A stretch of 64,000 bases of DNA from Cetorhinus maximus (taxonomy: Eukaryota): the NCBI RefSeq assembly GCF_964194155.1, contig NC_135889.1, positions 94,736,001 through 94,800,000 on the forward strand, given 5' to 3'. A program made the position numbers and the translations under genes. The notes beneath the pieces were generated by a model. That model saw only the letters and a program-made list of their open reading frames with translations. It had not been told where the DNA came from and ran no database searches. This document shows positions 10,935 to 64,000 of this stretch, piece after piece; within the stretch, counting starts at the first letter, position 1, and the number at the start of each line of letters is the position of its first letter.

Positions 10935-12050
10935 CTCCAGGCATACCTGATGCAAAAATAGTCACCTTGTTCAAAAACAAAGGGGATTGCAGTGACTGCA
11001 ACAATTATCGAGGCAGCTCCTTGCTAAGTATTGTGGGGAAGGTCTTTGCTCGCATTGCTGTGACCAGAGTGCAGACCCTGGCATCACTTCTACCCTGAGA
11101 CTCAGTGTGGCTTAAGAGCTGGCAGATTGATAGTGGACATGATTTTCTCACTTTGGCAGTTATAAGAGAAGTGCCACAAACAGAGCAGACCACTCTACAT
11201 GCCTTCACAGACCTCATCAATGCCTTCAAACTTGTCAGCAGAGGCAGACTCTTTAAACAGCTATGGAAAATAGGTTCAGAAAATAGAAAATAGGTTCAGT
11301 TCTGTTGAAGGGTCATGAGGACTCGAAACGTCAAGTCTTTTCTTCTCCGCCGATGCTGCCAGACCTGCTGAGTTTTTCCAGGTAATTCTGTTTTTGTTAT
11401 GGAAAATAGGTTTCCTGCCTGGCCTCCTGGGTATCATTTCTTCTTTCCACGAGAACATGCATAGTTTCGTCAGTGCAATTGTACATCATTGGAGGCTTTC
11501 AAGATCATCAGTAGGGTAAAGCAGTGCTGTGTCCTGATGCCAGCCCTGTATGGAATATTTTTCTCCATGCTGCTATTGTATGCTCTTGGCGACTCAGATG
11601 AAGGTGCCTACCTGCATGCCAAAGCCAATGGCAAGCTGTTCAACTGAGCGAGACTGTATGCCAAGACCCAAGTGTCCTAGTCTGAGACTTGCTATTTCCT
11701 CATGATGCTGCCCTGGCATCCCATACTGAAATTCATTTGAAACAGTTTGTAGATTGGTTCCCCTGGGCCTGCAAGGCGTTTGGACTAACAATTAGTGTCA
11801 GGAAGACCAAAATTAAAGGCCAGGATGTAGAGACTCCACCTTCCACTAGCACTCTGGAGGTCCTTGACAGCTTCGCATACTTGGATCAACAATTACCAGC
11901 AACCTGTCCCTTGATGCTGAAATCAGCTCCAGGGTTGCCAATGCCACAGGTGTCATGTCAAAGTTGAACAGTTGAGTGTAGACCAACAGCAAACTAACCC
12001 AAAATACAAAGCTCCATGAGTAAGTCTTGTCTTCTCAGCACCCTCCTTCA
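10935..12050 (+). mobile_element. RTE-clade LINE, RT region, decayed
   Basis: DAKIVTLFKNKGDCSDCNNYRG.SLLSIVGK, FPHDAAL (FADD-like), FGLTISVRKTK, LSTLL. Confidence 0.85.
11277..11397 (+). mobile_element. Short Penelope-derived insert with hammerhead-like motif, 15-bp TSD
   Basis: TSD tatggaaaataggtt at 11262-11276 and 11398-11412; the body is closely similar to 63763-63865. Confidence 0.85.
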
Positions 12051-20429: not shown

Positions 20430-20541
20430 TTCTACCTCTCTTCAGTTCCAAAGAAGTCATATTGGATTTGAAAGGTCAATTCTGTTTCTCCCTCCACGGA
20501 TGCTGCCAGACCTGCTGAGTTTTTCTAGCACTTTCTGTTTT
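20430..20541 (+). mobile_element. Decayed Penelope 3'-end fragment
   Basis: cagttccaaagaagtcatattggatttgaaaggtcaattctg...gatgctgccagacctgctgagttttt matches 50305-50410; the ribozyme core is eroded. Confidence 0.75.
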
Positions 20542-23694: not shown

Positions 23695-23815
23695 AGAAGC
23701 AAATACTGCAGATGCTGGAAACCTGAGATAAAAACAGAAAATGCTGGAAATTCTCAACAGGCCAAGCAGCATTTGTGGAGAGAAAAACAGTTAACTTTTC
23801 AGGTTGATAACCTTC
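23695..23815 (-). mobile_element. Decayed Penelope 3'-end fragment
   Basis: aaatactgcagatgctggaaa...aaaacagaaaatgctggaaa is the reverse complement of the 50350-50445 type tail. Confidence 0.8.
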
Positions 23816-47870: not shown

Positions 47871-48339
47871 GTACTCCTGTTTAATTTTTGCAATACTGTG
47901 CTCTTGTTTAATTTGTACAATACTTCTAATGGTCAAAGTTTCTGACCACATCTTGCATCACCTGGTCTGCAAATAAAAATAGTGAAGTCGTGGTGGACAG
48001 GTGGGCTTCCACAGTGTAAATGCATAAAAAACAAAAGTAACATCAGCAATGTGCACCTGATGGCTCAGTTAATTCATCAGTGAACACTTGAACTATGTAT
48101 ATATTCCAAGGTTTGATTCCTGCACTGCCCTAAGCTAATTGATCTCAGCCAATGCAGCGAGAATGCTGCAGCAATTGGTCTTGGTGTCCTTGCTTATGGA
48201 AAATGAGCTAGATTTCATTCTTCTGATTGTTGTCTTGTGACCTTGACAGCAAAATATGAATTATCAATGTCTAGAAAGGACAAGATCAGGGTCAGCAATG
48301 GTGCATCTGGGTTTAGATGCCTGTGTAAAAATGACACAC

Positions 48340-49462
48340 AAATAAAAATTGCTGAAAAAACTCAGCAGGTCTGACAGCATCTGTGGAGAGAAAGACTGGG
48401 TTATCATTTCGCGTCCGTATGACTTCTTCAGAACTAAAGAGAAGTAAAAATGGAGTGAAATATATACTGTTTTTAAGGGGGGGTGGGACAAGTGGAGCTG
48501 GATAGAAGGCCAGTGATAGGCAGAGGCAAAGGAGAGATTGCAAAAGATGTCATAAACAAAAGGTCAAAGGGGCGTTGATGGTGGTAATACTGGCTAAAGG
48601 AGGTGCTAATGGTGACATTAAGTAGAAAGCAGGATGAGCAAGTGACAGATGGCCCTAGTGGGGGTGGGGTGGGGAGAGGGGATTGTGTGGGAGAAAAGAT
48701 CGAAATAGGCTAAAAGGTGGGAATAAAACAATGAATGCAAATACATTTTAAAATAATAATAATAGAAATAGGTGGGAAATATATATATATGTATATTATA
48801 TGTATATAAAAATTAAAAAATAAATATTGGAAAAAGGGGATCAAAAAGGTGTGAAGATGGAGGAGAGAGCTCACGATCTGAAGTTGTTGAACTCGATGTT
48901 AAGTCCGGAAGGCTGTAAAGTGCCTAATCGGAAGATGAGCTGTTGTTCCTCCAGTTTGCGTTGAGTTTCAGTGGAACATTGCAGCAGGCCAAGGACGGAC
49001 ATGTGGGAATGAGAGCAGGGTGGTGTGTTGAAATGGCAAGCGACAGGAAGGGTCTGGGTTATGCTTGTGGACAGACCGAAGGTGTTCTGCAAAGCAGTCA
49101 CCCAGTCTGCGTTTGGTGTCTCCAATGTAGAGGAGACCGCATTGGGAGCAGCGAATGCAGTAGACTAAATTGAGGGAAGTGCAAGTGAACTGCTGCTTCA
49201 CTTGAAAGGAGTGTTTGGGCCCTTGGACGGTGAGAAGGGCGGAAAGTAAAGGGGCAGGTGTTGCACCTTCTGCGATTGCATGGGAAGGTGCCGTGGGAGA
49301 GGGTTGAGGTGCTGGAGGAGTGGACCAGGGTGCCCTGGAGGGAACGATCCCTGCAGAATGCCAACAGGGGGTGGTGAAGGGAAGATGTGTTTGGTGGTGG
49401 CATCATCCTGGAGTTGGCGGAAATGGCGGAGGATGATCCCTTGAATGCAGAGGCCCCAACAA
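48340..49462 (-). mobile_element. Penelope-like retroelement 3' part (GIY-YIG endonuclease plus 3' end), left arm
   Basis: GTFPCNRRRCNTCP linker, NLVYCIRCSQCGLLYIGDTKRRL..FAEH, PVACHFN, EEQQLIFRLGTLQPSGLN. Confidence 0.93.
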
Positions 49463-49464
49463 TG

Positions 49465-50450
49465 CCTCCACACCTCAACCCCCTCGCACGGCACCTTCCC
49501 ATGCAATTGCAGAAAGTGCAATACCTTTACCCCCCCCCCCCCACCTCACTGTTCAAGGGCCCAAACACTCCTTTCAAGTGTGCACTTCCCTCAATTTAGT
49601 CTACTGCATTCGCTGCTCCCAATGCGGTCTCCTCCACATTGGAGAGACCGAATGCAGACTGGATGACCGCTTTGCGGAATGCCTTCGGCCTGTCCGCAAG
49701 CATGACCTAGACCTTCCTGTTGCTTGCCATTTCAACACACCACCCTGCTCTCATGCCCACATGTCCGTCCTTGGCCTGCTGCAATGTTCCGCTGAAACTC
49801 AACGCAAACTGGAGGAACAGCAGCTCATCTTCCGATTAGGCACTTTACAGCCTTCCGGACTTAACGTTGAGTTCAACAACTTCAGACCATGAGCTTCTCC
49901 TCCATCTTCACACCTTTTTGATCCCCTTTTCCCAATATTTTTTAATTTCATAAATATATATATTTTTTCCCACCTATTTCTATTATTATTATTTTAAAAG
50001 TGTATTTGCATTCATTGTTTTATCCCCACCTTTTAGCCTATTTCGATCTTTTCTCCCACACAATCCCCTCTCCCCACCCCACCCCCACTAGGGCCATCTG
50101 TCACTTGCTCATCCTGCTTTCTACTCTTAATGTCACCATTAGCACCTCCTTTAGTCAGTATCACCACCATCAACGCCCCTTCGACCTTTTGTTTATGACA
50201 TCTTTTGCAATCTCTCCTTTGCCTCCACCTATCACTGGCCCTCTATCCAACTTCACCTGTCCCACCCCCCTTAAACAGTATATATTTCACTCCATTTTTA
50301 CTTCTCTTTAGTTCTGAAGAAGAGTCATACGAACTCGAAACGTTAGCTCTGTCTTTCTCCCCCACAGATGCTGTCAGACCTGCTGAGTTTTTCCAGCAAT
50401 TTTTGTTTTTGTTTCAAATTTCCAGCATGCGCAGTATTTTGCTTTTATCT
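49465..50450 (+). mobile_element. Penelope-like retroelement 3' part, right arm (inverted relative to the left arm)
   Basis: ORF 49578-49892 encodes the same GIY-YIG domain; the sequence is the reverse complement of ~48340-49318. Confidence 0.93.
50310..50348 (+). ncRNA. Minimal type I hammerhead ribozyme motif (Penelope-associated)
   Basis: agtt-CTGAAGA-a-gagt(catacga)actc-GAAA-cgtt-agct: helix I 4 bp with one G-U, helix II 4 bp, palindromic ACGT in place of helix III, GUU cleavage triplet. Activity untested. Confidence 0.7.
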
Positions 50451-50859
50451 TAGTGTTTAAAAGTGACTACTGGTTGCTTGCCCCATGATTGTGGAAGGTA
50501 TTGACCACCATAGAGCCGTATTCAAAAGAAGTCGCATTTGATTCATTGGGCCTGCTGCAGGTAAAATCCATGTTTGATTTCTGCATTCTCACATGCTTCT
50601 CTCCAGAACCAATGTATATGGGGCAAATATTGTAAATGGAGAATTGAAATGAGTATAGTGGTTTATAACGTGTGTTTATGAGAACTAAATGTGGCTCTGA
50701 CCTAATATTGTTTCTGTACTTGTTAATTCCTGCAACTTTAATATGGAGTAATTTATACAATTTAGAAATTAAATTGCATAGAATTTTAACTTGAAGATAT
50801 ATTCTCCCCCTACAAATTGTCCACTTAGAAGTTGGTGATTTAATTGTGTTTCACTGCAG

Positions 50860-63149: not shown

Positions 63150-64000
63150 TAGAAACATAAAAAATAGAAGCAGGAGTAGGTCCCTTGAGCCTGTTCCGCC
63201 ATTCAATATAATCATGGCAATATGATTGATCTCAACGCCATACTTTCGCTCTTTCCCTTTGCCCTTTGACACCCTTAGAGTCTAGAAATCTATTTCCTTC
63301 TTAAATATATTCAGTGACTTGGCCTCTACAGCCTTCTGTGGTAGAGAATTCCACAGGTTCACCACCCTCTGAGTGAAGAAGTTTCTCCTCATCTCAGTCC
63401 TAATTGGCCTACCCTGTTTCCTGAGACTCTGACCCCTTGTTCTAGACTCCCTCCAGCCAGAGGAAACATCATCCTGCATCCAGAATTGCATATGTTTCAA
63501 TGAGATCCCCTCTCCAGTGGATGCAGGCCTAGTTGACCTAATCTTTCCTCACACAACAATCCTGCCATCCCAGGAATCAGTCTGGTGAACCTTCGCTGCA
63601 CTCCCTCTATGACAAGTATACCCTTTCTTGGGTAAGGAGACCAAAACTGCACACAATACTCCAGGTGTGATTTCACCAAGGCCCTGTACAGGTACAGTAA
63701 GACATACTTGCTCCTGTACTCAAGTCATCTCACAATGAAGGCCAACATACCATTTACCTAAAAGAGTTCTGTTGAAGGGTCACGAGGACTCGAAACATCA
63801 ACTTTGCTCTTCTCCGCCGATGCTGCCAGACCTGCTGAGTTTTTCCAGGTATTTCTGTTTTTGTTTTAGATTTCCAGCATCCGCAGTTTTTTGTTTTTAC
63901 CATTTACCTTCTTAACTGCATGTTTGCTTTCAGTGGTTTGTGTAGAAGGACATCCATGTCCCTTTGTACATCAACACTTCCCAATCTATTATCATTTAAA
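63150..64000 (-). mobile_element. CR1 LINE 3' end, runs off the window
   Basis: HLEYCVQFWSPY, EMRRNFFTQRVVNLWNSLP. Confidence 0.9.
63760..63897 (+). mobile_element. Short Penelope-derived insert with hammerhead-like motif, 12-bp TSD
   Basis: TSD taccatttacct at 63748-63759 and 63898-63909; gagtt-CTGTTGA-a-gggtc(acgag)gactc-GAAA-catc-aactt. Confidence 0.88.

Follow-up and report, generated by a model that had tools for sequence, protein, structure and literature searches.

The short hammerhead-bearing insert at 63765–63897 of the window (the whole stretch of 64,000 nucleotides that was analysed) represents, on sequence comparison, the 133-base 3' terminus of an abundant coding Penelope-like element, and not a new mobile unit. 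We consider it likely, with a probability of roughly 60%, that the insert was produced by reverse transcription that started internally and ran off an RNA whose 5' end coincides with the first hammerhead base. The insertion is real and of a known kind; the claim of a new mini-SINE, put forward in the original prediction, does not stand.

The insert measures 138 bp (63760–63897, forward strand) and is enclosed, as had been predicted, by a perfect 12-bp target-site duplication (63748–63759 on the left, 63898–63909 on the right). It interrupts the ORF2 fragment of a host LINE on the reverse strand (63170–64000, left limit approximate), recognised by its translation and by empty paralogues, which we take from its resemblance to be CR1-like. 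Paralogous LINE copies have no insert at this point and carry the target sequence once (13 alignment pairs listed). The duplication is perhaps 10–12 bp long, since the first two bases of its right-hand copy (TA) also fit a continuation of the element and are possibly derived from it. The insert had been expected to start just before helix I of the hammerhead: a non-element lead is indeed present, but it consists of five filler bases ending in G (63760–63764), where long copies carry other bases, and homology to the element begins only at 63765. We define this base, an initiator-like A and a hotspot of 5' ends, as position 0, so that the element part spans positions 0 to +132 on the forward strand. 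Its last 30 nt or so (63868–63897) form an optional tail between two clusters of 3' ends, at about +100..+104 and +134..+147; the 3' ends of the family are bimodal, about 30 bases apart, which corresponds to the tail known from PMC8557442 and PMC11167929.

A minimal type I hammerhead motif occupies 63765–63803 on the forward strand, as judged from sequence, folds and family frequencies. Helix I pairs AGTT (63765–63768) with AACT (63800–63803); helix II (63777–63781 with 63787–63791) comprises five base pairs, one of them G-U; and GAAA (63792–63795), followed by C-A-U-C, places a putative cut after 63799. The fold that had been described – helix I, a 5-bp helix II, GAAA and an AUC triplet – is thus in the sequence. 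Two departures are additionally seen: the core (63769–63775) reads CUGUUGA, with A6 replaced by U, and the palindrome is broken at 63797, giving ACAU instead of ACGU. At the palindrome position 82% of 323 copies have G, and the window copy shows a G-to-A change at a CpG; the family as such possesses helices I and II, GAAA, NUH and a palindromic 15.2–16.2. At core position 6, 89% of the same copies have U and 10% have C, in a sample that the search patterns enriched for U. Young clades carry CUGUUGA, CUGCUGA or CUGCCGA in place of the canonical CUGANGA, while older subfamilies have CUGAAGA or CUGAUGA together with a covarying helix II. The canonical cores and covarying helices of the older subfamilies confirm the homology of the motif; loss of A6 across the young clade makes self-cleavage by its members doubtful. 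A natural A6C variant is reported as slow in PMC3088659. An Rfam search returned no hammerhead match either at the gathering score or at E≤10, and minimal motifs may lie outside its models.

A second, independent stub is present at 11262–11412 on the forward strand, inside a LINE that is presumably RTE-like. An insert with a similar start had been placed near 11277–11397; it proves to have its own 15-bp duplication (11262–11276 and 11398–11412) and to begin at the identical element base, position 0, as the copy at 63765. Element homology runs over 11298–11398 (positions 0..+99), with helix I broken and the tail absent, and is preceded by a 21-base filler (11277–11297). The filler partly repeats the target duplication, which suggests that slippage during joining lies behind it. 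An older subfamily is also represented in the window, by a long insertion in head-to-head arrangement (48336–50460) whose core is the canonical CUGAAGA and which has TATATA at -31. The window further harbors diverged fragments of related Penelope ends at 847–919, 20492–20541 and 23701–23781.

That the insert was mobilised by Penelope machinery was part of the original prediction and is upheld: its 133 element-derived bases match the 3' terminus of long coding Penelope-like copies, and differ from one of these (L008) at a single base. Many of the 30 best genome matches have common upstream sequence, extending smoothly to more than 1.5 kb. Longer stretches of the long copies contain broken ORFs with a reverse transcriptase domain (PF00078, E values of 3e-8 and 2e-7), and a weak GIY-YIG match (E of 3e-4; 21.5 bits, just below the cut-off of 22.6). 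Pieced together from different copies, these give the layout of an endonuclease-positive Penelope-like element – a single ORF with reverse transcriptase plus GIY-YIG at the C terminus. The translation of L036 contains a CX4CxxC linker, of the form CX2-5CxxC before GIY-YIG that, according to PMC8557442, marks the Neptune/Nematis type. By linker and domains the parent, as read from its sequence, is a Neptune-type, endonuclease-positive Penelope-like element. Partial-tandem pseudo-LTRs, an inverted truncated copy and an optional tail were all found in it; a pseudo-LTR, an inverted 5'-truncated copy and a 30–40-bp tail are described for Neptune/Nematis-type elements in the same source.

In full-length copies, located by means of the 5' part of the ORF, the body comes after a terminal repeat whose length varies, and the unit measures approximately 3.3 kb; the first ATG of the long ORF lies about 40 bases beyond the repeat. 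In one copy (L164) two terminal repeats are spaced 3291 bp apart, that is, by one full unit. In another (L323) the start of the body has been rejoined just upstream of the hammerhead via some 8 bases of microhomology, and in a third (L241, around 1500–1700) the hammerhead stretch occurs in short tandem repeats, possibly a retrozyme-like local amplification. The family is abundant: an exact 31-base end pattern occurs 3922 times, an 18-base hammerhead pattern 22,851 times and a 27-mer common to relatives 68,124 times.

In order to define the 5' ends, random 10-kb sampling was tried first (33 stretches plus the window). These stretches held too few young copies, and pattern matches were sampled in genome order instead; the main sample is the first 91 of the 3922 end-pattern matches, all on contig C1. 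The interval 0..+4 had been suggested by the initial genome matches and was then tested on these 91 loci. Counted by the sense arm, 48 ends lie upstream of position 0, 14 at 0..+4 and 29 downstream. Among the 52 inverted insertions the two arms end no more than 20 bases apart in 29 cases (Spearman 0.43), and such correlated arms are not independent. When every insertion is instead represented by its longer arm alone, 17 of the 91 ends fall at 0..+4, one at -5..-1 and one at +30..+39. The start rate at 0..+4 is 17 per 342 nt at risk, versus 17 per 4391 in -100..-1 – a 12.8-fold excess (p 3e-11) and the highest-ranking of all 5-base windows scanned. A second sample, which counts arms and comprises 98 of the first 100 hammerhead-pattern matches (a few of its loci are shared with the first), gave 21 per 429 nt, against 26 per 5249 upstream. 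The 5' ends are accordingly non-random, with the sharp peak just upstream of the core that had been foreseen and a strength of 10- to 13-fold across the two samples.

The peak does not account for all copies. About three quarters of those that reach position 0 extend beyond it, 6 of 91 continue into the element body, and a lesser bump of 5' ends is apparent at -26..-60. Eight of 91 sense-arm ends cluster at +53..+59, a cluster mostly gone under longer-arm counting. Inverted copies dominate the peak (13 of 17 are head-to-head), and in these microhomology makes its edge uncertain by about 2 bases; stubs that have duplications but no inversion begin there too, AG retained.

Position 0 coincides with promoter-like sequence, as defined by the TATA and initiator consensus motifs used for the scan. 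In 183 of 196 copies it forms the A of YYANWYY. Of 162 young copies, 126 have a TATA motif at -29, and three of five older ones have it at -31. The 3296-bp reference contains 54 initiator-like sites, among which position 0 alone has TATA[A/T] at the right distance. The box itself, TATATTT, is imperfect and lies outside the stub. From these sequence features, the peak probably marks the transcription start of the element. Against this reading, the D. virilis start site is well upstream of helix I (PMC2377424).

The bases at the junction bear on the same question. Two junction sets were selected by the base at -1 (50 with G and 41 with A; 33 and 24 of them inverted, 8 and 7 in which the duplication was not found, 1 and 2 long). 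A duplication plus exactly one extra base was seen at four of eight resolved G junctions versus none of eight A junctions (p 0.04 one-sided, 0.08 two-sided), a weak hint that the extra G is a copied cap. Genome-wide, G at -1 outnumbers A only slightly (395 vs 333), in a count confounded by inversions. Purines at -1, -2 and -3 number 728, 808 and 238 of about 12,950, which fits an edge at 0/-1; the count at -2 is dominated by AC, an excess probably due to fold-back microhomology. Assembled RNA contigs from 4 of the 24 runs listed, which by their nature cannot show ends or circles, revealed neither transcript termini nor splice joints open to interpretation, and a step in their depth close to position 0 carries no weight.

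Should transcription indeed begin at the peak, the stubs would arise as follows. A promoter in the terminal repeat would start the RNA at position 0; the enzyme would nick the target and, by analogy with the anole element, prime either about 100 or about 135 bases further downstream. When primed within the first repeat of the transcript, it would reach the capped end after 100–135 bases, leaving a stub; when primed within one of the later repeats of a tandem transcript, it would go on copying and yield long copies. The 3' end lies 3 or more bases inside the body in 15 of 65 short copies and, comparably often, in 31 of 110 long copies (10 further long copies continue fully), so that the templates of such short copies would have included the repeat–body junction of an autonomous array. 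Having neither the TATA box nor the downstream body, the stub is predicted to be an inert dead end. The anole PAc element, as reported in PMC11167929, used two internal priming sites in vitro, needed downstream RNA and could dispense with hammerhead cleavage; against the analogy, that element belongs to the Poseidon clade, whereas the present one is Neptune-type. Were the start-site reading correct, genome sequence alone would map the 5' end of the transcript together with both priming sites, and no new mobile RNA would be required to explain single hammerheads scattered by the thousands. A clade that expanded recently (the 22,851 exact 18-base matches) has lost A6 and offers a natural experiment on the need for cleavage.

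The same dead stub could also result from a pause or break in a continuous RNA: reverse transcriptase may stall at a protein-bound pyrimidine tract and AG, or fold back at a small inverted repeat (ACT-T-AGT). We regard this as a possibility to be taken seriously, though one distinctly less probable than run-off at an RNA start. The stretch at position 0 can also be read as a conserved 3' splice site, its pyrimidine tract, YAG and a TTCAC box being kept across subfamilies, and the D. virilis Penelope intron ends at helix I (PMC4209133). Linkage is unbroken across the hammerhead, as expected of read-through templates; many of the peak copies are fold-backs, and the lesser bump at -26..-60 likewise counts in favor of a pause. 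Set against this are the non-inverted stubs, which share the start and keep the AG, and the want of a common upstream exon, by eye, in the junctions inspected. A pause leaves both the TATA spacing and the extra G unexplained, and a stall caused by structure would be expected on the 3' side of the hammerhead.

A further version of run-off at the cap would make the stubs the Penelope counterpart of retroviral strong-stop DNA, with long copies arising through a jump of this short DNA to the repeat that the RNA carries at its 3' end. We hold this to be unlikely. If true, it would mean that in tens of thousands of recent broken-core copies the motif has been kept as a start-site and recognition structure rather than as a catalyst.

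Still less probable is a discrete, self-propagating mini-SINE or retrozyme family moved by the Penelope enzyme, a proposal that is largely refuted. The sharp 5' peak and the clean 10–16-bp duplications are what such a family would show, and allele frequencies do differ between short and long copies at +7, +39 and +92 (that at +7 biased by the search patterns). However, long coding copies have the identical 3' end, and the predicted private diagnostic bases were absent from the short copies in a set of 324 (122 short, 186 long) that filtering retained from 402. Nor do the short copies form a lineage of their own: their nearest-neighbor clustering is 0.40, versus 0.37±0.05 in shuffles (86 of 300 shuffles reach 0.40), in a test that compares about 95 bases and has limited power for small, young lineages. 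For 92 of 109 short copies a long copy is at least as close, all main haplotypes yield both kinds, and the 3' ends run on into the body. The stub lacks a TATA box, and its ends do not coincide with the putative cut site; where a retrozyme would consist of tandem units each with a hammerhead, it is a single copy with a duplication.

Least credible is that a full insertion recombined between its two terminal repeats and left a solo repeat behind, an origin suggested for solo repeats of a rotifer (PMC3846280) and compatible with a persisting duplication. The upstream repeats in full copies differ in length and for the most part begin well upstream of position 0, so that no peak would result; full-length copies are rare relative to stubs (the 6 of 91 above), and inverted arms show the same peak. 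Three other explanations were rejected: ribozyme cleavage as the source of the 5' end (no peak at +35, with the single end of 91 at +30..+39); a switch of template from one molecule to another at the hammerhead (linkage does not fall there, although a jump within one molecule is still compatible); and back-splicing with a donor-like CAG/GT at +84, since the GT is missing from older subfamilies.

A literature search of incomplete coverage found no report of 5' ends peaking sharply at a TATA/initiator site, nor of a shark Penelope hammerhead SINE. The closest known counterparts of the present element are those of the Neptune/Nematis type, with which it shares reverse transcriptase and C-terminal GIY-YIG, the CX4CxxC linker, partial tandems, head-to-head inversions, an optional tail and variable duplications; PMC8557442 treats truncation as general, whereas the sharp 5' peak is a feature of the element described here. 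Rotifer Pen2a has TATA and initiator-like sequence within its repeat and also forms solo repeats, but in the accessible text of PMC3846280 the spacing is 20 bp and there is no tie to insertion ends. In the anole Poseidon PAc (Frangieh et al. 2024, PMC11167929), as here, two priming sites downstream of the hammerhead bound the tail and ends at the cut site are lacking; its ORF begins inside the hammerhead, while the present ATG lies past the repeat, and its RNA 5' end is unmapped in the text available.

The motif itself resembles the minimal Penelope hammerheads of metazoans (Cervera and De la Pena 2014, PMC4209133) in its missing helix III loop, its palindromic ACGU and the base bulged before helix II. 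Those motifs are mostly single, dispersed and ascribed to truncated elements, and the same holds here; they differ from the present young clade, which has U or C at position 6, and agree with the canonical older subfamilies. Non-LTR retrozymes (bioRxiv 10.64898/2026.07.22.740005) are likewise non-coding, carry a type I hammerhead and derive from Penelope repeats. They are, however, tandem units with at least two hammerheads, whereas the present insert is single, flanked by a duplication and identical to the end of a coding element.
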